Positions 3,895 to 53,467 of a stretch of DNA of 64,000 bases are shown piece by piece (position 1 is the stretch's first letter; each line of letters begins with the position of its first letter). Below the pieces are notes generated by a model. That model saw nothing but the letters and a program-made list of their open reading frames with translations, was not told the DNA's origin and did not search any database. This DNA comes from Octopus vulgaris (taxonomy: Eukaryota), in NCBI GenBank assembly GCA_951406725.2, contig OX597814.1, forward strand, positions 211,606,001-211,670,000, given 5' to 3'. The position numbers and the translations under genes are program-made.

Positions 3895-4050
3895 AAAGCA
3901 CGGCCTGAAATTTTGCAGGGTGTGGGATAGCCGATATCATCGACCCCAGTGTGTAACGGGTACTTATTTCATCTACTCCAAAAGGATGAAAGGTAAAGTC
4001 GATCGCGGAGGAATCTGAAAACTGAACATAATGGAGGACAAAATGCCGCT
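3895..4050 (-). mobile_element. degenerate SINE family B fragment
   Basis: ATCGACCCCAGT...GGATGAAAGGTAAAGTCGA matches the reverse complement of the 4951-5181 copy. Confidence 0.65.
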
Positions 4051-4120
4051 AATGATGATGATGTTGATGATGATAATAATAATAATGATAATAATAATGA
4101 TAATAATAATAATAATGATG

Positions 4121-4194
<74 letters not shown>

Positions 4195-4196
4195 TC

Positions 4197-4932
4197 AAGT
4201 GATTTAAAACCGGAAACGGAAGCTCTAATCTGTGCTGCCCAAGAGCAAGCACTAAGAATAAACTACATAAAATACAGAATAGGCTGCACATCAGAAAGTG
4301 ATAAGTGCAGAATCTGTGGACAAAAAGGTGAAACCGTATCGCAAATTACCTGCCAATGAACGCCAATAGCCCAGAAGGAATATAATAGACGCCCAGAGAA
4401 TATAGCCAGGCTTGTCAATTGGACACTTTGCAAAAAGTATGGACATGACAGAGCAAAGATTTGGTACGACCATAAACCTGAAGCCATTGTGGAAAATAGA
4501 AATGCAAAGATCTTATTGGATTTTATGATTCAGTGCGACCATGACATTGAAAATTGGAAGCTGGTCATAGTCTGAATTGAGAAACAAAACAAACTATGCT
4601 GGATTATAGATATACCATGCCCAGCTGAAAACAAGGTATGCGATAAGGAAGAAAGAATTGTCAAGATATATGACAGGTTAGCTTGGGAAGTTAAGCAGTT
4701 GTGGTCGATGAAAAAGCTGGTATTAGTGCCATTAATTGCCGGAGCCCTGGGAACGGTTAGTAAAAATCTTGAGAAGTACGTGGAACAAATAGGGGCTGCA
4801 ATAAGGATGGAGCACTTGCAGAAAACAGGATTGCTTGGAACCGCTCGAATACTCCGGAAGCAGCTCGAAAATAAGAGGTCTTACCTTAGTTCACTGGTAG
4901 TGAACAGCTGACACTGTAGTACAGCTGTGCAA
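4197..4932 (+). pseudogene. 5'-truncated R4/Dong-like RLE non-LTR retrotransposon, copy 1 (decayed)
   Basis: Translates with stops and frameshifts to ETEALICAAQEQAL, KCRICGQKGETV, ILLDF, WIIDIPCP, VPLIAGALG, LLGTARILRK (CCHC + RLE region); begins right after (TAA)n. Confidence 0.85.
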
Positions 4933-6094: not shown

Positions 6095-7232
6095 TGGATG
6101 CTAAAGCTCGTGGAAAATCACGAGAGACGAAAGAAGCTTCATTCTATCATAAAGGAAAGCAAAAAATTTGCTATTGATCTCGTGCAGGTTACCCAAACTG
6201 AACAACCCGAGGGAAGTACGGCAACTATTGTTGCAAAGAAGGTGAAAATGATGGCAATGAAAAAAGCGCACGAGCAATTGGCTGATAGGTGAGAGGAGAA
6301 ACCTCTGCACGGCAAATATGTGACCCGCAGCAAACAAGCTGATGTTGACCAGAAGCAAACCCATCAGTGGCTACGGAGCTCAGGGCTAAAAGCAGAGAGC
6401 GAAGGTTTCATCCTGGCTGCTCAAGATCAAAGCCTATTAACCCGGAACTACCAGGCCAATGTGATGAAAAATGGAGCAGACCCAAAATGCCGATTCTGCA
6501 ACGACATGATTGAAACAGTGGACCACCTAATCTCTGGATGTAAAGTCTTAGCACCAGTGGAGTATAAATTAAGACATGACAGAGTTGGCCAATATCTCCA
6601 CTGGCTAATAAGTCGGCATTACAATATCAAAACTGCCGACAAGTGGTATAATCACCACCCTGAGGCTGTAACTGAAGGAGAAAATGTAACCATTCTGTGG
6701 GACTTTCCAGTACATACAGACCGAACCATCAAGGCCAATAAACCAGATATTGTTGTGAAAGACCAAAACAATAAAGTTTGCTTATTGATCGACATGAGCA
6801 TCCCCTGTGATCATAATATCTCAGCGAAAGAGATTGACAAGCTCAGAAAATATAAAGACCTACTCATTGAAATTGAGAAAATGTGGCATCTCAAGGCGGT
6901 TACAATACCAGTGATCGTAGGAGCACTAGGAATGATCAAGAAGGGAACAGAAAATTATATGAGAATGATCCCTGGCTTACCATCCCTGCAAGAAGTGCAA
7001 AAGATTGTCTTAACTGGTACATCACACGTATTGAGAAGAGCATTGTCGATGTGAGAACTGTTGCTGGTCATGTATTTTAATTTAACTTAAAAAAAATAAA
7101 AATAATAAAAAATGAACGAACTACTTAGTTTGGTTTAATGGCCTACCAATATATACTATGAGTTTCTTTGCCCTAGGAGTCGGGAAGACACTCGGCAAGA
7201 AATGGAAGCAAATTTCAAAGAAGAAAAAAAAA
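6093..7232 (+). mobile_element. 5'-truncated R4/Dong-like RLE retrotransposon, copy 3 (least decayed)
   Basis: Frame open from the TAA array with a single TGA at 6290-6292; about 180-bp 3'UTR ending in an A-run followed by (TAA)n. Confidence 0.9.
6320..7054 (+). CDS. C-terminal RT-thumb/zinc-knuckle/restriction-like endonuclease fragment of an R4/Dong-like LINE (244 aa)
   Basis: CRFC..ETVDHLISGC (CCHC), RHD, KPDIVV..LIDMSIP (PD..D), K..KYKDL, IPVIVGALG. Confidence 0.9.
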   Translation: MTRSKQADVDQKQTHQWLRSSGLKAESEGFILAAQDQSLLTRNYQANVMKNGADPKCRFCNDMIETVDHLISGCKVLAPVEYKLRHDRVGQYLHWLISRHYNIKTADKWYNHHPEAVTEGENVTILWDFPVHTDRTIKANKPDIVVKDQNNKVCLLIDMSIPCDHNISAKEIDKLRKYKDLLIEIEKMWHLKAVTIPVIVGALGMIKKGTENYMRMIPGLPSLQEVQKIVLTGTSHVLRRALSM

Positions 7233-16570: not shown

Positions 16571-16706
16571 TCTCTCTCCCTCTCCCTCTCTCTCTGAGGC
16601 TTTTACATGCCGAAGACTACTTGGTGTAATTGATAATTATTCCAAATTAATTAATTTCACCCTTCATTATTACATATATGTATATATATATGTGTGTACA
16701 CATATA

Positions 16707-17219
16707 TCTATATTTATAAAACTGTAGTTGTGTGAGTGTCTGTCCCCTTCGATTTAGATTCCTAACTACTCCCACATTTTGCGGTGCAGTTTAACCAAAT
16801 TCGGGTATCTTATAGTCGTAATTCATATCGAGCCCGTCTGAGTATTAGCGCGCGTCTACGATGAGTCTACGATTTTAGAAATAATTTAAAATCATTTTTT
16901 ATTCCATTTTAATGCATATTTTTTCGTGTGTCGATGGCGGCGGAGTTGGCGTCCATGGTCACACCTGCACCTGTTTGCTTCTCCCCCTTCTTCCCTCCCT
17001 CGTGAAGCTGTGGGGAAGGGAGTGTAAGGAAATCAACGTCGTAAAGCGTTGTCAAGGAGACCAGCGTTCTTTTAGAACAACAACTTCATGGCTTGAAGAC
17101 ACCAAAACAGAAATGGCAAAGAAAGCCCGAATTGGCATCTATAAGGGAAGTAACTCTCTAAAAATGCTTATATAGTTATTTCCCTTACAAACCCGAGCAA
17201 CGCCGGGCGATACTGCTAG
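16707..17219 (+). mobile_element. non-autonomous Helitron (about 510 bp)
   Basis: A|TC 5' end at 16707, subterminal hairpin CCCGAGCAACGCCGGG at 17192-17207, 3' CTAG|T at 17216-17220, no TSD. Confidence 0.8.
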
Positions 17220-29187: not shown

Positions 29188-29938
29188 CTTTTCCCTTTGA
29201 ACGGCATTTAATTAATTTTTTTGTAACTAAACACCTTCAAACTTCGAACTCTGGTAGAATGTGTCATATAAAACCTTTGTCAACAACAACTATCGGTGGT
29301 GTATATTTCGATTGTCACTGTTATTTGTGACATCGTTCGTGCGTTTATACTGGCTTTAGCTTTAAGGTTTTAGGGTTAGGGTTAGGTTTAACGTTTTAAG
29401 GTTAGGATTTTAGGATTTGGGTTTGAGTTAGGGTATTGGGGTTAGGGTCAGGGTTGGTGTTTTAGAGTTAGGATTACAGAAAAAAGTGAAAAATGAAGAA
29501 ATTGGAGGGGGAAAGGTAGTGGGCAGAAAAGTCTTTCCGAAAATAGTAGCTGATAAACAGGAAACGAAACCTAAAAGCAGTAGATATGCAGGAACGATTA
29601 TAGCGGTGTCCTGAAGTAAACATGCTTCAGATACACTCGTTTATTCATACAAACGTAACTGACATGACATATGTCATAAATAACTGTGACAAACGAAATA
29701 TACACCACCGGAAGTTGTTGATCCGAGTAGTAATTTTATTCAGCTGAAAACACGACAATGATTGGTTGAAATTACAGAAATACGACAAATTGAACACGAA
29801 ATGACTTTGAAAATAGAAACTTTTCTCAATAAAAGATGTAAAAGATGTTTAATATGACACATTCTACCAGTATACGAAATTTGAAAGTATTTAGTTGCAA
29901 AAACTTAACTTTTCGATCTGCTTTTCAAAGGGAAAAGG
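29188..29938. mobile_element. TIR element (MITE-like) with an internal degenerate (TTAGGG)n tract
   Basis: Ends CTTTTTCCCTTTGAA and TTCAAAGGGAAAAG; CTGGTAGAATGTGTCATAT vs ATATGACACATTCTACCAG; CGGTGGTGTATATTTCG vs CGAAATATACACCACCG. Confidence 0.8.
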
Positions 29939-34861: not shown

Positions 34862-34896
<35 letters not shown>

Positions 34897-35251
34897 CAGT
34901 AATAATATAGGGTGAAATTAATTAATTTGGAATAATCTTTAATTTCACCAAGTAGATTTCGGTATGTAAAAGCCCCATTCGAGGAAAGTTTAAGTAATAC
35001 TAAGTAATTAAGGGTTTAGCAACGATTTGCCTCACCACACACCGAATTTAGAAATAGCAGGTGACTTAATATTGTATGATCGATTGTCGTCATTTCTTTC
35101 TCTCATGCCTGTCTGTGTTTGCCTTTCAAGTGCTGTGGTTTTACTGAGATCTCCCTTTTAGTAGAAAGAATAGCTATAACTCGTTGACTGCTATTTCTAA
35201 ATTCGGTGTTTGGTGAGGCAAATCGTTGCTAAACCCTTAATTACTTAGTAT

Positions 35252-35255
<4 letters not shown>
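34897..35255. repeat. fold-back repeat, family P, copy 1
   Basis: AGTAATACTAAGTAATTAAGGGTTTAGCAACGATTTGCCTCACCA inverted at about 35190-35255; a fragment of the same family lies at 16598-16672. Confidence 0.85.
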
Positions 35256-35313
<58 letters not shown>

Positions 35314-35316
35314 GTC

Positions 35317-35652
35317 CGTAATAATGAAGGGTGAAATTAATTAATTTGGAATAATTATCAATTACACCAAGTAGTCTTCGGCATGTAAAAGCATCATTCG
35401 AGGAAAATTTAAGTAATACTAAGCAATAAAGGGTTTAGCAACGAATTGCCTTACCACATACCGAATTTAGAAATAGCAGTCAAAGAGTTATAGCTATTTC
35501 TTCTACTAAAAGGGAGATCTCAGTAAAAACAGCAATTGCTGTTTTTACTGAGATCTCCCTTTTTAGTAGAAGAAATAGCTATAACTCTTTGACTGCTATT
35601 TCTAAATTCGGTATGTGGTAAGGCAATTCGTTGCTAAACCCTTTATTGCTTA
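35317..35652. repeat. fold-back repeat, family P, copy 2 with a near-perfect 116-bp-arm palindrome
   Basis: 35420-35535 is the reverse complement of 35536-35652 with one extra T and no spacer. Confidence 0.92.
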
Positions 35653-36683
35653 TATATATATATATATATCAATAATCATTATGTGTGTGTGTATTCTAGC
35701 GTAGACATGCACGTGTGTATATATGTCTGCGTCTATTTATGTGTGAGTGTGTGAGTACGACCAGGACTTTTCTTCTACTAAAATGTACACGAAAATTGAA
35801 TTTTAAATTACTTCTTTTTTTTTTGGTTACATATTTGACAGAATCCTTGTACATCTACCGCTTTCTCAGATTTCGAATGTAAATGGATGTAAACTACTCA
35901 AAATATAACGTCCAGTCAGATTATCAAACCTCGATAGAGGATTTCATATTAGCAATATTGAAATATATCTTTTAGTGTTTAAAGTGTTGCTGACATTTGG
36001 AATATATTTTCAAGTGTTTTTCCCATTAAGTCCAGCATTGGGATAAGATGAGCTGCTCTGCAGAAGTTTGCAGTTCTCATGCTAAAATACTTTAACCCTA
36101 ATAAGTACCAATTGTGGATAAATATGGTTGTGAGGGATGAGTATTCCGCTGGGAACTTGCTTCCATATGTGAAAGAAACCCTTGAATATTGCTAGCATAC
36201 ATGCTCCTACATGCAGCATGTGTTTGTCGCTAAAAAGAACATTTATACTACGCTTTAAATAAAGTCCTGCTCTTGTGGTGTTGCGGTTAGAACGTCTCAT
36301 TTAAATTGTTTTCATATTAGTATCACATTTTGCCACAACTCCAGCAATTTCCGGGGAAGAATAAGTCGACTTTACCCACCCCATTGTCCAAGTGGTATTT
36401 ATTTTATCGTCTTTGAAATGATGAAGTGAAAAGTCAACTGTGGTGTAGTTTGAAGTTAATCCGTAAAAATACACGAAATGCCGCTAAGCATTTTCCCTGT
36501 CTTGCTCACCGACTTAAATTGGTTTCATGTAGATAGTTTCCATACACTCAATATTATATGCAGTGTGTTTGATTCCAATAACATGATAGGAAAACTAGAG
36601 GGAAAGGTAAAAAAGAAATCCCAGGGTGTCTACGTGTACCTCTAATCTTCACATCAATATGCATGTATATAAGATCTGAACAG

Positions 36684-43479: not shown

Positions 43480-46400
43480 AGCGTGTGTGAATATAGCTTC
43501 GTGATTTTTCACGACCTCTTGACACCAAGTATTAGGGGAACCGTTTTAGTCGGCGATGGAATAAGCACGAATTAAAAAAAAAATTTTCGGCTATTAACTT
43601 GGAAGTAGTGCGCCATGAAATATGAAGTCCAATCCAATATATTTGGATTAACTGTTGAACTGGACGGACGTCTATTTGTTTCTCTCCCGAGTCAGTAGCA
43701 AGCTACACAGCTTCAAAACTAACTGACCTTAAATATATATATATTTGTAACCACGTGTTTGCCTACAAACCCGTAAGTACGTTTTCATTTAACTACAAAT
43801 TGTTATATACACCTGTTTTTCTTTTAATATCCTCAAACAACCAAATAATCAAAAACTCACACCCTTAAGAGAGAACATTTATATATATATACACTTCTTT
43901 AACTCCCAAGAAAGAATATATATATTTTCAAAAATCAAAAGGAAAACAAACAAAAGAAAAACAAACATGACTAACTTGCAGGCCTGCAACAGACGAAATT
44001 GGTCTGATAACGAAATTGATGTTTTAATAAACACATGGCTCTCTCTTTCCCAAACAGAAAATCTAAATGTCTTGTGTTTGAATGAGATTGCCGAAAAAAC
44101 ATCACAAGTGGTCAACACACGATCCGTCAAACAGATTCGTAGCAAGTTGAAACATATCGAAGTATCTTTCAAACTGATAAGAGGCCATTATGAAAAGCTT
44201 CTACATATTTTCACAGTTCAAGAACAACAACAGCTAGAAAATCAGCAGCCACAACAACAACAACAACAGAATGAGCCACTCCTGGTTCCCAACACAATGG
44301 CTGACCCTGACATCGGTCAGGCACAACAACAACAACAACAGCCACAGCAACAAGAACAACAACAGCCACTCCTCAACTCTAGCTTACTAGACGATTCACT
44401 AAATGCCAGTATCTTTTCACCGCTCTCACAGCAACCACCACAATTATCATCCTCATCATCACCACCGCTGCCACCATCGTCTTCTATCACCAAAAATACC
44501 AACAGAAAACCAAATAAGAAACCACTGCCCTCTTCCCCCACATCACCACCTCAATACTACTGCAGTAACAAAAACTTAAAGAAACATAGGAAGCAGAATG
44601 CGCCCCCCACGGCACAAACAAGAAATCCCCAAATATGCCGCTATTCACTGCGCCAGAGACTCTGCACAAATAGTGACTGCATCTTCACGCATCTACCCGG
44701 CACTAGACGCACTACTGGCCAAGGCCAAAGCACGCATCCCACAATAACATCAACACCACCAAATAGTAAATCGAAATTCAAAACACACACAACTCGGAGT
44801 CCCAAAATCTGCCGGTATTCCCAACGTGAGAGAACATGTCTACTGAGTGACTGTCCCTTCACTCATCTTCCAGGGACCCGACGCACAAACAGAAACGGGG
44901 CCTCAAGCCAACACACAAACCTGAATAACAATAAAAATAGAAACACACCATGCTGCAGTAATGCTGGTCCAGTCTTTTCAGGAAGACACAAAAACAACAA
45001 CAACAAAAGTGGAAACTACAACCCTATCCAACAGTGCAACCACACCTCCAGCCAAAAACTGCTCCCTAAGCAGGAAAATTCTTTTAGCCATGTTGAACAT
45101 GGCAAAAGAGATACACAAAAACATTCTAGCCATCACTCAACACCATCCTATGCTATTACCCCAGTGCACCAATTCCCCACATTGCTGCCACTAACACACA
45201 CAAAAAATCCAAGCCCCCTGCAACAGTCAAAACCAGCCACTACACTAACCTCCACATTCCTACTCAATGCACAAGGTGTCAGCCCTTCCATCAATGCACA
45301 AAAATGGAAGGTCCAATTCATTGAAGACTGGGTTGGTAACCATTCACACCACATCCCTTTCTTCATTCTCACTGAGACCCACCTTGACAACTCCCACTTG
45401 GAAGCCGAAGTGAGAGTGAAGAATTTCACAACCATCCGCGCGGATCGTATCGGCAGGAGGAAGGGTGGAACTGCCATTTTCCTGCATGATTCATTTACGG
45501 CAGATGGAAATAGTATATTCTCCAACGGCTACTGTGAATCAGTCACCGTGCACAACAAAGCCAATGATCTGACAGTAATTGGGCTCTATAGGCCGCCCCA
45601 AACACCCATACTGTGCTTTAAAGAATGCCTCAACAGCATTAAGTGCTTTATTCAACAGTGCCATTCTAGCAACATACTCATGATGGGAGACTTCAATCTA
45701 CCCTGTGTTGACTGGACTACAAACTGTTTGAAACCAAGCACTCCCGCCTCAACCGCTGACAAAGAAGCAGCAGAGTCACTTTTCGACTTTACGAATGAGT
45801 TTTTCTTGTCCCAACTTGTCCTTGCACCAACAAGACATCAGAACATTTTGGACCTAGTGTTTAGTAACCACACTAACACTATACATAACGTTACAGTGGA
45901 AAAAACCCTTCTTTCAGACCATGACATGGTTCTCTGTAACATGAAATTCCACCAGCCGAAAGCTAATCCTAGTGACCTTCCTCCAGCCCACCCATTTGAC
46001 AACATGGATCTCCATAAAGCCAACTGGGATGCAATCAGGAACGAGCTATCAAATGTTGACTGGTCCTTTACACATACACACATCTCCACCAACCATAAAA
46101 CATCTTGGCAGATCTTTGTAGACACCGTCACAGACATATGTGCAAAACACTCCCCACCAAGACCTGTGAACAAAAAGTGCAGAATCCCCCAAAACAGAAA
46201 AACCATTATCAGAAAAATAAAAAGAACAAACAAAAAAATTAACAAACTAAAGTACTGCCAACAGCAACACACACATTCGACGGCTATCGCACTGCTTGAA
46301 TCCAAAAAATATAACCTCCAACAATGCATGAAGTCCCTCATCAATAACCAAAGATCAGCTGAGGAGAAGTGGGCCATTGAAAAAATCAAACTCAACCCCA

Positions 46401-48284
46401 AAGTGTTCTTTTCATTTGCGAGGAAACGCAGGGTCACTGTCTCCACTGTAGGCCCTCTAATTGACGAAACTGGCACTCTCCAAGATAATGCCAAATCCAT
46501 GGCCGAGATACTGCAGAAACAATACTGCTCTGTTTTCAGCAATCCTGATATGGCCGATCTGGGCTGTATCAGTGATGTCAACCCCCAACACACTATATCG
46601 GACATAACGTTTAGTGCCCCTGATGTCTTAGCGGCGATAAACGAAATAAAACACAATTCAGCAGTAGGCCCCGATAGGTTCCCTGCTTGTGTCCTGAAGG
46701 TGTGTCGACACCAACTTGCATCTCCCCTTGCTAATCTGTGGAGAAACTCACTGGATGCTGGCTATATTCCAAAAAACCTTCTGTCCCAGTCTGTTGTCCC
46801 AGTTTTCAAAAAGGGAAACAAGTCCCTTGCAGTGAATTACCGTCCGATCTCACTCACCTCTCATATCATCAAGGTATTTGAGAGGGTGGTGAGATCTCAA
46901 ATAACCCAATTTCTGGAAAGCAACAGACGGCTGATCTCCAACCAACATGGGTTCCGTAATGGAAGGGACTGCCTAACGCAGCTCCTGCATCACTTTGAGG
47001 ACATTTTGAGAGCTTTGGGAGAGGGCTCCAACACCGATGTCATCTACCTTGATTTCAGTAAGGCCTTCGACAGGGTCGATCACAAGATCCTATTGAAAAA
47101 ACTATCCAACATTGGTGTCTCTGGAAAGTTACTGAAATGGATTAAGTGTTTCCTGACAGACAGATCTCAACATGTTGTAGTTGAAGGGGTAAAATCAAGC
47201 CCAGCCAAAGTCAGTAGTGGCGTTCCGCAAGGCACTGTGCTGGGCCCACTTCTTTTCATCATTTACATTAATGACATTAATGACATCATCAAGCACAGCA
47301 ACATAAAAATCTTTGCAGATGACTCCAAGCTACAGAAGGTCATAAATGAGGCGAGTGACCGGACATGCCTTCAGTCAGATCTACTGGCTGTTATCCAATG
47401 GGCAGAAAAAAACAATATGCTGCTGAACGAGGATAAATTTGAGCTAATCCACTTTGGAAAAGAGGATGCCCTGAAACTCCCATACTCCCTTCCTTCAGGT
47501 GAAACTCTCGCGGCGTCCAACAACATCAGAGACTTGGGAGTAATTGTGGACAACAACGTAAGCTGGGCCACTCATATAAACACCAAAGTTGACATGGCCC
47601 GCAGAATGTGTTCCTGGATTCTCAGAACTTTCCAGTCGAGAGATATCCACACCATTATCCTTCTCTTCTCCACTTTTGCCCGACCCCACCTTGAATACTG
47701 TTGTCCACTGTGGTCTCCCCACACAATACAAGGTATCAAAAAAGTCGAAGCACCTCAAAGGGCAATCACAAAAAAGATAGATGGCATGACAGGCCTCGAC
47801 TATTGGGGTCGACTAGAAAAGCTAAAACTCTATTCTCTCCAACGTCGTCGTGAGCGCTACATCATCTGCATGATGTGGAAAATATTCCATCAGCATTGCC
47901 CAAATGATGTTGGCATCACCTTTAAGGTACATCCAAGGCTTGGGCCCCGTGCCATCCGCCCAAAACAAAAATCGCACTCTCATCTCATAACAACAATACG
48001 GCACAATTATTTCACCTCAATTGGCCCCGCTCTCTTTAACATCACACCAAAACACATTAAAACAGAAACTGACCCTATAGGGTTCAAGAAGTCTTTGGAC
48101 AGATTCCTTCAAGAAATCCCGGATAAACCCCCTACACCCGGATATGTCTCTGTAAACAATAACTCTCTACTTGAGTGGGCCATAGTGCCCAAATTCTGAC
48201 TTGAAAGACTTCACCAGGTGGTGCTATTAAGTTAGACATGGCCTGGGCCAATAATGGCCGAAACCTATCAAAGTATCAAAGTAT

Positions 48285-48331: not shown

Positions 48332-50870
48332 CTAGCAGAAATACCCAGCATTTCCCCGGCTGAATAAAATATTGAAATTCAAAAGTGTCTTTTAGATCTC
48401 TAACATGAAACATAGTCAACGCAGGTCTTTCGCCCTAATAGCAGAGATACCAACTTTATACGTTAATAACCCGGCATTTCCGACTTTATTGAATATGATA
48501 AAATTTAAGTATGCCTTTTAAATCTCTAAGTAGAATGAAACATAAATTATGCTGTCCTCAACATTTATTAGCTGAGGTCAATAGCATATTTTCTCCAATG
48601 TACTCACTGTTAAAATTGTTTAAAACATGAGGTAGTTCTTTGTCTTTGCAATCATCTTCAATTGTCAGTACTTATTTGAAACACGTTGAACCTGAAAATG
48701 CATAAATTTGAGAAGGACCAGCCTGTGGGTGCTCCTCTGCTGTTAATAAGTACAGTTAACAAAAATTCTATCAGATGACGTCAGTATAAACAAATGTTTT
48801 GAAGCAAATCCAGAAATCAATTTCAGTTTAATTTTCTAGAGCTTCTAAATATATGATGTTTTGAGTGCATCCATTAATTGTTGTATAAATGAAAAAAATT
48901 TAAGGAGTTACAACTCGCCAAAATCCTACATGCAATTGTCCATGAGAGAAGCAAGGTGAAGCAAGGTGAAGCCCAACAACCTTGAGAGACTGTCCTTGAG
49001 ATATGTGCATTGACATAACGAAAGTACACATTCACCTGGGGCAAATATTTTCACCAAACAATGTATGTTATGTATATGAAACAGATTTATTCACAATTCA
49101 TCAATTAAATGAAATCTCCGTGTGAATTTTTTTTTTATCACACACTCACTCACATCTTATGCAAATAGAACGCCGGAGAAGGCATAACTACAGACTTCTG
49201 TCCACCGAATTTAGATGATTATAACTTACAGAAAAATTGGATATTTTTTCATTAAATTTTCTATGAATATATATTATATCATATATAATCCGAATATACA
49301 AAATTTTGGGGGAAAGGGAAGAGTTTTAGAGGAGGTCGGGAGAGTTTTCGGAAATTTCATCGGAATCCAATTCAATTCATCTTTTGTAATTAAATTGTCT
49401 ACATATATACCTCGAACTATGTACATTCCGAGCATATAGGGTGTTTGGGAAAAACAATTGGGTGTTATTTTTGAAAACTTTATCCCAATCGGGAGTGTTT
49501 CGGGACACGTCGTCCATATTTGCTTCATTTTATCTGTTTTGTGCGTTTGTGCATCCGTATATAACCCTCAACCCTAGCTTTAAAATTTCGGGAAAAAAAT
49601 GGAAAAGGGGAGGAGTGGAGAAATATTCGTAGATAATTCAATTAAAAAATATCCATTGAAAGTCGGTGGAGGTGGAGCGAGGGAGAAATCTATAGTTTTA
49701 GCGCCGGAGAACAATATATCAAAATGAAAGTACTTTTAGAAATTTTTTTTTATTTATCTGAAATCGTCACAACTGAATATCAAGTGTTAATAAGATGACT
49801 TGTTCCAAAAATGTCCGAAATATGTATTGAAAAATCAAGAAAAAGGAGTCTATGTCCTTAGGAATTTTTCTCACCTTTTGAAATTCAATACACATACACA
49901 CACACACACAATTCATTTGCCTTCATTGCCTGTTGCTTCGGTAGATATCTACGGATGCAGAAACGCACAAAACTGAGAAAAAGAAACAAATATGGAGGAC
50001 TTGTTCCGAAATACCCCCTAATGGGAAACAGTTCTCTAAAATAACACCCAATTATTTTCTCTAAAAATTCCTACATGCTCGGAATGTACATAGTTGGAGG
50101 TGTATTTATAGACAATTTCATTAAACGATATCCATTTTCCAGAAATTTAAGACGAGTTGAAATGGACTCCAGTGAATTTTCCGAAAATCCTCTACCACCT
50201 CCGCCTGAAACAATTTTTCATCAAAATATTAAATATTCAGAATATATATGATATAACACATATTCGTTGAAAATTTCATTAAAAATATCCATTTTTCTGA
50301 ATGTGATGATCATCCAAATCTGTGGTGGGGGTTGCAGAAATCTGTAGTTATGCCGCCGGCGAAGAATATAAGCAATGAAAGTACCTTTAGAAATTCTTTT
50401 TTTATCTGAAATCGTCACATCTGAATATCAAGTGTTAATAAGTTGACTTGTTCCAAAAATGTCCGAAATATGCATTGGAAAATCAAGAAAAAGGAGTCTA
50501 TCTCCGCATAGCATTTCTTTTCTCCCATGTAAGTACCTTTTGAAATACTTTATCAGAAATGGTCACAATTGTGATGCGGTGTACATAAATGTATGGGCAA
50601 ATAGCTGGTTAGGACGTCAAATGCAGGACATTGAAACTTATTTACTTCGTCAAGACGCCAAAGACAGGAAGTTCAGAAAACGATTTGAAGAAGTGAATCC
50701 TTATATATGGAGCAATATTATTTATCTTCACTAAAAAGAAAATCAAAATCAAGACCGTATAATTCTTTCAAAGGTCAAATTATTCATGTACATCAAGTAT
50801 GGTACAGATTGATCCAGAGGTTCGTGTATGCATTGAGGACACAGACATACAGACAGAGTATTATATATAT
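48332..50870 (-). mobile_element. non-autonomous Helitron-like element (about 2.5 kb)
   Basis: Minus-strand 3' end CCGGGGAAATGCTGGG hairpin then TTTCTGCTAG|T; 5' region (TA)n-TACTCTGTCTGTATGTCTGTG resembles the 16707 element; internal repeats. Confidence 0.7.
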
Positions 50871-51178
50871 ATATACCAGAGTGAGCACATAAATGCGAAT
50901 CAATGTGGAAAAAATCGTACTCGAATACCAGAAGTAGAGTCACACGCTTTATAAAAAAAAAACAGCAACAATATCACAGAAGCTGTTACTCAGAGTTTCA
51001 CGTTCTCGTTCGTTGGACAGTTTTGTTTAGAAAGGAACAAAAATAAGGTTGTAAGCAAGAATATACAATTAGTTCAGTCACACATTTGAAAATGGTTTTG
51101 TTTCCTTGGTCCTTTCAACTAACGGTCTTTTCGATAACCTGTTGCATGCAATAACAAACTGCGATATAAAATCATATA

Positions 51179-51411
51179 AGGCGGTGAGCTGGCAGAAATG
51201 TTAGCACGCCGGTCGAAATGCTTAGCGGTATTTCGTCTGCGTTATGTTGTGAGTTCAAATTCCACAGAGGTCGACTCTGCCTTTCATCCTTTCGGGGTCG
51301 ATAAATTAAGTACCAGTTACGCACTGGGGTCGATGTAATCGACTTAATACCTATGTCTGTCCTTGTTTTTACCCTCTGTGTTTAGCCCCTTGTTGGTAAT
51401 AAATAAATAGG
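51179..51411 (+). mobile_element. SINE family B inserted in the left arm of the fold-back, 11-bp TSD
   Basis: TATAAAATCAT at 51165-51175 and 51412-51422. Confidence 0.9.
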
Positions 51412-51927
51412 TATAAAATCATCTTATAAAAATCAAAGAAAATCTTAATCAAAAATAGCTGATAAAGAACCTGAATACCTAGGGTAAGTAATTAGCTGTA
51501 AAACATTAATCAATTCATACATTGAAAGTTATATCCGTTTTAAAAAAAGCAATTTTAAACTTAAGCTTAAGCTTAAAACGGTAAAACAGTTGAAGGGTTT
51601 CTTAAAAGTAATGTCGAAATATTCATTAGCACAGCAATGCAAAATAATTATAACGTATAAAGTCAAATTTGAACTGATATAAGTTTTAACGTATAAATTG
51701 ATTAATATTTTACAGCTAATTATTTACCCTGAGTATACAAGTTCTTTATAAGGTATTTGTGATTTAAGCTTTTCTTCGATATTTATAAGATGATTTCATA
51801 CCGCAATTTGTTATTGCATAGAACCGGTCATTGAAAAGACCATTAGTTGAAAGGGCGAATAAAACAAAACCATTTTCAAATGTGTCTCTATTGAACTAAT
51901 TGCGTATTATTGCTCCATTCGAAATAC

Positions 51928-51969
51928 AACTGTCCGACGAACGGGAACGTGAAACTCTGAGTAACAGTT
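51928..51969 (+). ncRNA. putative minimal type I hammerhead ribozyme (U4C core)
   Basis: AACTGT-CCGACGA-ACG GGAA CGT-GAAA-CTC T GAG-TA-ACAGTT; stems I, II and III all pair; activity untested. Confidence 0.6.
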
Positions 51970-52073
51970 TTTGTGATATTTTTGCTGCATTTAATTACAC
52001 ACTCACGCACACACATATATACAGACAGATAGGCACACACACACACACGCACACACACACACGCACACACACG

Positions 52074-52112
<39 letters not shown>

Positions 52113-52129
52113 ACATATATATATATATA

Positions 52130-53399
52130 CAGGGTGGGGAAGCAAAATTTACAATGAACGTTAAGTTGTCTTTTCTCAGAAGGCACTAAGTCAATTGTTT
52201 TGAAATCTAGCAGATATTGATCTCATAATCATACCTAACACTATTATCCTTATCTTTTCAGAAACTTTTGCCCATATGAGTAATCAGGAAAGCAAACGCC
52301 AAAGAGTGTGTGATTTTCTGAATGCACTCGTCACACCAAAGGAGATTTGAAGAATAGTTGGAGTGTCCATAAAGACTGTTTATAACGTAAAGAATAGAAT
52401 GACTATGAGCAAAACTATTACGAGGAAGTATGGAAGAGGAGGAATCAACAAAATACATATCAAAGCTTTTATTAAAGCTCTCAAATCTAAAATCCTAAAG
52501 GATCCAACCAAATCCATGAGAAAAATGGCAATTGAACTTGAGGTAGAAAACAAGACTATTAGAAATGCAGTAAAATATGATTTGAGGTTAAACTCTGACA
52601 CAAGAACACCAAAACACTTGTTGACAACAGCTATGAAGGAAAAGAGACTGGAAAGGTGCAAGAAAATTATTACGTGGTTCAAGAAAAAGTCCTCCACTGT
52701 AACGAACTTTTCATATGAAAAGATCTTCACTGTCGATGCTGTTCTGAACCGCAGAAATGACAGATTTATCGCAAGATCGACAGATGAGGTTAAGGGGACA
52801 TTCAAAACAAAAAAATCCTGTTCAGATTATGGCTTTTGGTATTAAGGCTTCCGATGAAAAGAAAATGCCTATACAATTCTACAAATCTGATGAAAAGATC
52901 AATGTTGATGCTTACTGCAAGACTCTGAGATACGATGTATTGCCATGGCTTAAAGCAAACTACCCAGATGGTAATTATTTATGGACACAGGATGGTGCTC
53001 CAACCAACACAGCTAGAAAAATACAAGATTTCTGCAAATCCAACTTGGGCAATTTTTGGGAATCATGTTTATGGCCGCCTTCTAGCCCAGATCTAAACCC
53101 TCTGGATTATGCTACTTGGGGTATTTTACAACATGCTACCAATACAACGTCACACAGCAATATCTTAAAGATACTATTAAAGAAGAATGGGAAAAGTTGT
53201 CTCCCGAATATTTGAGGAACACTTGTGCAAGTTTCAGGAAGAATGTGATGGCAATTACTGAGAAAGAAGAAGGACAGAATAAAAACATTTTCTATTACGT
53301 AAATTTTCTTGTGGCAAATGAATTCTCATGACTTTCAATAAACTAATTGGTCTTTCAAACCCTGCCTCAAAACATTGTAAATTTTGCTTCCCCACCCTG
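52130..53399 (+). mobile_element. full-length maT/DD37D Tc1/mariner transposon, inactivated
   Basis: Perfect 27-bp TIRs CAGGGTGGGGAAGCAAAATTTACAATG; QDGAP-to-NPLD spacing is 37 aa; first catalytic D appears as Y (FSYEK); frameshift near 52810 splits ORFs 52363-52845 and 52757-53215. Confidence 0.93.
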
Positions 53400-53467
53400 C
53401 ATATATATATATATATAATCAAAAAGGTAATAACATAGATTATTATTACCAGTGGCCTAGTAATAAT

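Follow-up and report, generated by a model that had tools for sequence, protein, structure and literature searches.

An inverted, 5′-truncated copy with a tail on one side is typical of Penelope-like elements, with published tails of 30 to 40 nt, and as a layout it is already known and ordinary for this group. The described systems closest to the locus reported here are elements of the Hydra clade, which carry a type I hammerhead near their 3′ end with a palindromic stem III closed by a 1-nt loop, insert at (TA)n targets, and encode proteins marked by RWK, DKT, and CxCX5C (PMC8557442). The same source describes Penelope-13_HM, in which a truncated copy lies in inverted orientation and both strands bear a motif. 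In Schistosoma mansoni, dual hammerheads on opposite strands lie ~100 to 700 bp apart, and the core variant reported for minimal Penelope hammerheads is U3-A8 (PMC4209133). The protein of PAc (Poseidon) cuts and extends both strands at AT-rich targets, with two start sites delimiting a tail; its ribozyme needs the protein, and insertion in vitro proceeds without ribozyme cleavage (PMC11167929). Non-LTR retrozymes are non-coding carriers of a type I hammerhead, presumed to depend on Penelope elements and organized as short head-to-tail tandem repeats (PMC7229834; bioRxiv 2026.07.22.740005). For Octopus vulgaris, a repeat survey puts Penelope-like elements at 6.83%, in 190 families, and the part of it available to us mentions no hammerhead.

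The 64-kb stretch of O. vulgaris DNA analyzed here (the window) contains two inverted copies placed back to back between microsatellites, each with a hammerhead-ribozyme-like motif toward its end. We read this locus, with a probability of about 75%, as a single old and decayed insertion made by a Hydra-type Penelope-like protein, in which two 5′-truncated cDNAs were joined back to back. It comprises the following features:

50862–50875, no strand: left target microsatellite, (TA)7 sequence
50876–50946, minus strand: 71-nt tail, present on the left copy only, its far end placed by the (TA)n border
50917–50940, minus strand: predicted tail hairpin, starting 46 nt past the left cut site
50947–51175, minus strand: left copy, outer (3′) part
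50981–51022, minus strand: decayed hammerhead-like motif with core CCAACGA (U4C and G5A) and loop AGAA, predicted inactive
51176–51411, plus strand: SINE, a later insertion, with an 11-bp duplication at 51165–51175 and 51412–51422
51423–51565, minus strand: left copy, inner (5′) part, without the counterpart of ~51579–51667 of the right copy
51553–51578, no strand: loop-free 26-bp palindrome at the fold-back axis, with overlapping AAGCTT and CTTAAG sites
51566–51996, plus strand: right copy, likely 5′-truncated, with a short 3′ end 33 nt past the cut site
51928–51969, plus strand: minimal hammerhead-like motif of type I, its core bearing U4C, with A-U at 10.1-11.1, loop II GGAA, and a palindromic stem III, in agreement with the family majority
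51997–52130, no strand: right target microsatellite, mixed (CA)n/(TA)n

The first-pass annotation had proposed a kilobase fold-back at 50950–51997. The fold-back itself is real, with three pairs of arm segments (50958–51045/51905–51992, 51080–51175/51790–51885, and 51447–51539/51672–51764) matching at 85 to 86% identity, but its left boundary was placed too far inward, as the element reaches left to ~50876. Across the whole arm alignment there are 52 mismatches in 328 columns (K2P 0.18), making the arms ~84% complementary, and ~90 bp of the right arm (51579–51667) are missing from the left. The axis lies at 51565/51566, where the 13-nt halves of the palindrome differ at one pair (92% by blastn). 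The distance from the cut site to the end of the element is 33 nt on the right and 111 nt on the left. No target duplication was found around the fold-back; the flanks differ, the inverted repeat does not extend to both ends, and blastn found no direct repeat of the arm (pseudo-LTR or tandem) within the 64-kb window.

Four of 24 listed public runs (X1, X4, X6, and X8, with four organism labels) were aligned to 51421–52020, giving 2,339, 4,781, 3,584, and 2,065 contigs, respectively. Over 305 nt across the axis, contigs of the locus itself show no difference in X1, 4 in X4, and 2 in X6, and because these contigs bridge it, the axis is not an assembly artifact and is common to three organism labels. 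The initial suggestion of a later SINE hit is borne out as well, since the SINE splits the left arm and is bracketed by its target duplication. It has 13 further blastn matches in the window; we take it to be of the tRNA-derived type, and ARAGORN found no tRNA within it.

Several other repeats lie in the window. An adjacent fold-back at 49173–50360 (~82% over 394 columns) is of unrelated sequence and has no hammerhead motif, and one of its arm ends is also repeated directly (49684–49857 and 50336–50505). A fold-back of ~750 bp at 29188–29937, likewise without a hammerhead motif, encloses degenerate TTAGGG-like repeats at ~29365–29470, and 34862–35669 consists of tandem 400-bp units, each with an internal palindrome (34993–35060 against 35188–35255, 98.5%), and a related piece lies at 16595–16718. 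Kinship of the three other fold-backs with the hammerhead fold-back was rejected, their scores of 37 to 51 falling within the range of shuffles (up to 65). On the plus strand, 43793–48199 holds an open LINE ORF of 1,468 aa with Myb/SANT-like, endonuclease, and RT domains, probably a young copy. At 52115–53414, a broken DDE transposase (52351–53215) is enclosed by 42-bp inverted repeats in (TA)n, an element that we assume to be a likely Tc1/mariner. The stretches 3997–4911 and 6293–7054 are 3′ remnants of non-LTR elements with a weak zf-RVT match, presumably of the restriction-like endonuclease type.

Both hammerhead-like motifs are as first described, the right with core CCGACGA and the left with core CCAACGA and its AGAA loop. 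The right motif has a 6-bp stem I, its core at 51934–51940, stem II ACG-GGAA-CGT, the GAAA element, stem III ACTC-T-GAGT, and a GUA site, with the cut predicted after 51963. GAAA, a UH site, and three helices with a palindromic stem III are thus all present; the core departs from CUGANGA at position 4, and the G10.1-C11.1 pair of the type I minimal hammerhead is replaced by A-U. The left motif is the mirror of the right one and not independent evidence, and a mismatch in its stem I leaves only 4 unbroken pairs. Under a descriptor drawn up after the motif was seen (one core mismatch, stem I of at least 6 bp), the right motif is the only match in the window, with 1 match across 821 block-shuffled windows; looser versions gave 6 in 821 (stem I of at least 4 bp) and 49 in 821 (two mismatches). 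Rfam returned no match at the gathering score and no hammerhead among 20 weak matches.

The first-pass annotation had further read the motif as a minimal dimer-type hammerhead, and the predicted pairing agrees with this layout. The stem III 9-mer self-pairs between two copies at −7.9 kcal/mol and forms no hairpin at all, and the fold of the monomer motif is no more stable than that of shuffled sequences (z +1.2 to +2.0). If RNA read through both arms, 42 of 42 bases of the plus-strand motif and 39 of 42 of the minus-strand motif would, by prediction, be paired with the opposite arm. Because the two motifs lie on opposite strands and are buried in this predicted arm duplex, the fold-back cannot provide the dimer partner.

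Compared with published motifs, the right motif resembles those of the Hydra clade in being a 3′-proximal type I hammerhead whose palindromic stem III has a 1-nt loop, at a (TA)n-type target, and its stem I (ctgt/acag) and its stem III (actc-n-gagt-a) are near-identical to those of Hydra-2_Amil (PMC8557442). U at 11.1 is also found in many Hydra motifs. It differs in its CCGA core, where 26 of 26 rows of File S2 of that paper have ctga and the descriptor used there requires it, in its 3-bp stem II, and in having no ORF within 362 nt upstream; it differs likewise from the hammerhead of Hydra-1_Obim, the published octopus element. With the minimal Penelope hammerheads (PMC4209133), it shares the dimer-type stem III, whereas it lacks an extra base between 9 and 10.1, has A-U for G-C at 10.1-11.1, and carries the U4C core. 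The inverted 5′-truncated arrangement with a motif on each strand is that of Penelope-13_HM, and the 71-nt tail is longer than the published ones. Like non-LTR retrozymes, the locus is non-coding and presumably Penelope-dependent, but it is an inverted pair without a tandem unit.

Whether the family core is CUGA or CCGA is answered by the aligned contigs in favor of CCGA, and the right motif agrees with the family majority sequence. Among 40 of 77 variant rows listed, none falls in 51926–51988, the weakest listed variant having a share of ~40%; most aligned contigs must accordingly have C at position 4, with room for a U minority of up to ~40%, and unlike subfamilies would escape the alignment. 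C4 is also present in both arms. Because CCGA is the majority core in family contigs, we read U4C as a family trait and not as decay.

The family is deeply represented. Summed contig depth at 51941–51960 is 124,762, 1,329,351, 238,654, and 90,872 in X1, X4, X6, and X8, against 3,706, 41,132, 5,833, and 3,068 for the best arm bin and ~10.6, 45.8, and 11 for own-locus contigs in X1, X4, and X6. Motif depth is thus ~30 times that of the best arm bin and ~10,000 times that of the locus, although contig depth does not give the number of copies and may be raised as much as ~30-fold by overlap between unitigs; as a rough reading, the family numbers hundreds to thousands of copies. Loose contig ends before 51926 and 51928 agree at only 0.46 to 0.50, and therefore differing upstream sequences share the motif. 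On the downstream side, loose ends behind 51985 pass through AATAATAAAG into TATATA, ~38 nt past the cut site, and others continue into a stretch matching the window's left extension; in each of the four runs, the consensus of the loose ends behind 51992 matches the first ~20 nt of the left tail. These two continuations imply that 3′ ends in the family come in a short and a long form, one of each being present at this locus. One contig each in X4 and X8 carries an opposite-strand joint at 51836–51962, perhaps another short inverted copy. Four of the five listed opposite-strand joints were set aside as evidence, both of their inner arms lying within the aligned stretch.

Cleavage by the variant motif is predicted to be weak and to require two copies, and we give the family motif roughly an even chance of being active. 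Cleavage at this locus is unlikely: in read-through RNA the motif would lie hidden in the long arm duplex, and the left copy has lost G5. An alternative that concerns function only, and is compatible with a Penelope insertion, is that the U4C motif does not cut and is kept as a protein-binding signal. U4C considerably lowers hammerhead activity in vitro, PAc transposes in vitro without cleavage, and the monomer fold is weak. Against this, the majority sequence retains all other core bases, the GUA site, and all three helices, and a natural viroid U4C variant is active enough in vivo to support infectivity. We consider a binding role a serious possibility, at somewhat less than even chances.

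To place the motif among relatives, metagenomes and prokaryote genomes were searched with a pattern of core, GAAA, and stem III allowing C or U at position 4, which matched 77 loci, 58 in metagenomes (where a common stem III follows from the search pattern itself) and 19 in genomes. Stem I reaches at least 5 bp in 13 of the 77, all of them CUGA. The 19 prokaryote-genome matches, with stem I of at most 4 bp, look like chance. The exact window motif is absent from the viral and metagenome contigs. In a set of 16 motifs (14 loci chosen by eye plus the two arms), all six stem I pairs have changed on both sides, and stem I covariation is 0.64, compared with 0.27 in shuffled and at most 0.22 in slid controls; the rows are related, and the value is not a probability. 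The CUGA motifs of six loci (L008, L017, L020, L044, L046, and L054) form a family in which stem II is mostly preceded by a U-U mismatch at 10.1-11.1; several of these loci have no nearby ORF, and non-coding carriers may hence be common.

A Penelope ORF lies just upstream of the motif in 9 of the 77 loci (L035 and L036 being one contig). L036 (1–4943) is an intact tandem Hydra-type Penelope element with 2.4-kb units that are 99.6% identical to each other and a hammerhead with a 14-bp stem I; its protein, for which 952 relatives were found, carries RWR, DKT, and CxCx5C, close to the marks of the Hydra clade (PMC8557442). Because Pfam names no family for L036, L045, both L055 pieces, P0003, or P0015, the label of Hydra-type protein rests on these motifs and the published description.

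The spacing of the 3′ end can be followed across these loci. In L055 and L045, (TA)n starts 34 and 37 nt past the cut site. A counterpart of the predicted tail hairpin occurs at an offset of 44 to 51 nt in L035, L036, L040, L052, L053, and L054, with compensatory changes, and by eye ~43 nt past the cut site in Hydra-2_Amil. As a pattern drawn up after inspection, the hairpin is found in 9 of 82 motif matches, with a background of 0.001 per 120 nt. Alignment of the whole tail to relatives is weak (best p 0.01 to 0.025, uncorrected, in 4 of 20 rows), and of the tail we rely on the hairpin alone. The motif, the end spacing, and the tail hairpin match Hydra-type Penelope loci, in line with the Penelope link drawn at the outset.

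The arms, as first proposed, are non-coding. A frameshift-aware search for a Penelope protein remnant scored 13.3 in the arms (p 0.44), while control loci scored 84 to 134 in three of six cases and 13 to 21 in the other three. A candidate coding remnant near 51527–51671 was discarded (best profile match E 2.2, failed shuffle test), as was a resemblance between 51662–51675 and the sequence that follows the stop codon of L036, put down to chance. In L036, L045, L054, and L055 the core lies 87 to 107 nt past the stop codon (stem III at ~90 to 110 nt), and the 362 nt of right copy upstream of the window motif far exceed these 3′ UTRs (3 to 4 times). No partner element, tandem copy, or transcript came to light, the hammerhead of Hydra-1_Obim being a different one. 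The window copy thus lacks the Hydra-clade ORF, with RT and C-terminal GIY-YIG, and shows a hammerhead near the 3′ end, with a variant core, and insertion into (TA)n, seen in the left flank and in the family loose ends, the right flank being mixed CA/TA; it also shows an inverted copy with a tail at one end, a mark of Penelope-like elements in general. As to 5′ truncation of copies, depth declines from the 3′ end inward, and two paralogous contigs extend upstream of the axis. In its workings the locus likely resembles a Hydra-type 3′ end, and we do not claim membership of the clade.

A single Penelope-type insertion could account for this arrangement as follows. Both target strands would have been primed inside the (TA)/(CA) microsatellite, with the short end, ~35 nt beyond the ribozyme site, as the start of one cDNA and the end of the tail as the start of the other. 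The two start sites of PAc fit one tailed and one short end, although PAc belongs to a different clade and its ribozyme overlaps the ORF start (PMC11167929). As the free ends of the two cDNAs were identical in sequence, their annealing would have required a palindrome, and this would explain an axis on AAGCTT/CTTAAG. Each arm would then have decayed by ~8 to 9%, the left arm losing ~90 bp and receiving the SINE. The source element was likely tandem, such that two motifs could pair via stem III and slowly trim the RNA, perhaps with help from a protein; we lean very slightly toward a non-autonomous source over an autonomous one with a long 3′ UTR. The more far-reaching proposal, that an abundant and still-cutting U4C hammerhead resides on non-coding Penelope-dependent elements, that the tail hairpin is the start signal of the Hydra RT, and that inverted insertions arise via palindrome-annealed cDNAs, we regard as doubtful in its entirety.

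The first-pass annotation had instead taken the fold-back for a palindromic, non-coding, ribozyme-tipped element moving as one fixed unit. The loop-free axis, the lack of a coding remnant, and the repeated arm interior would suit such an element, but the ends are unequal, the tail being one-sided. Depth at 51541–51560 is 11 to 218, below the next bin in all four runs. Two informative paralogous contigs, among 32 pieces listed (13,267 more), match from 51563 and then diverge (12 and 52 unmatched letters) where mirroring would be expected, a weak indication that the fold-back is particular to this locus. A full transcript would, moreover, bury the motif. We therefore regard a fixed palindromic unit as improbable.

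Host snap-back repair at the AAGCTT palindrome, by which a single Penelope-like copy would later have been duplicated in inverted orientation, has a similarly low probability. It would explain the loop-free axis on a palindrome and a letter at 51893 that both arms share and that is absent from ~99% of family depth. This letter, together with the family letters of the left arm (16 of 17 listed arm-difference sites), suggests one template followed by independent decay. A host duplication would, however, copy flank or stop at random, whereas each outer end coincides with a 3′ end of the family at a microsatellite, one being the long form and the other the short. That the terminal repeats of a DNA MITE or foldback transposon hold a chance or captured hammerhead-like stretch is very improbable: despite long, AT-rich, non-coding inverted arms and three other fold-backs without the motif in the window, the inverted repeat does not extend to both ends and has no target duplication, the motif, end spacing, and hairpin match Penelope loci, and loose ends suggest 5′-truncated single-armed copies ending in (TA)n.

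On the reading of a Penelope-type insertion, three features are possibly new: the U4C core at high copy, the hairpin in the tail, and the joining of the two copies at a short palindrome. In the Penelope and hammerhead literature examined, we found no description of a U4C majority core, of the hairpin, or of a palindromic junction; work by Lunse et al. on variant Penelope hammerheads may already cover U4C.

U4C has been thought harmful, and here it is the majority in a high-depth repeat of four organism labels. Hammerhead counts based on strict descriptors may thus miss whole families, as searches for CUGANGA miss U4C; if the family motif still cuts, a very abundant U4C population would be invisible to every such screen. 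The family further offers a test of whether Penelope-like elements need cleavage at all. The intact element L036 would be well suited as material for assays. The hairpin, held at a fixed distance with compensatory changes in Hydra-type tails, may serve to signal the second start site, and the palindromic axis predicts a mode of joining that inverted Penelope insertions would follow genome-wide.
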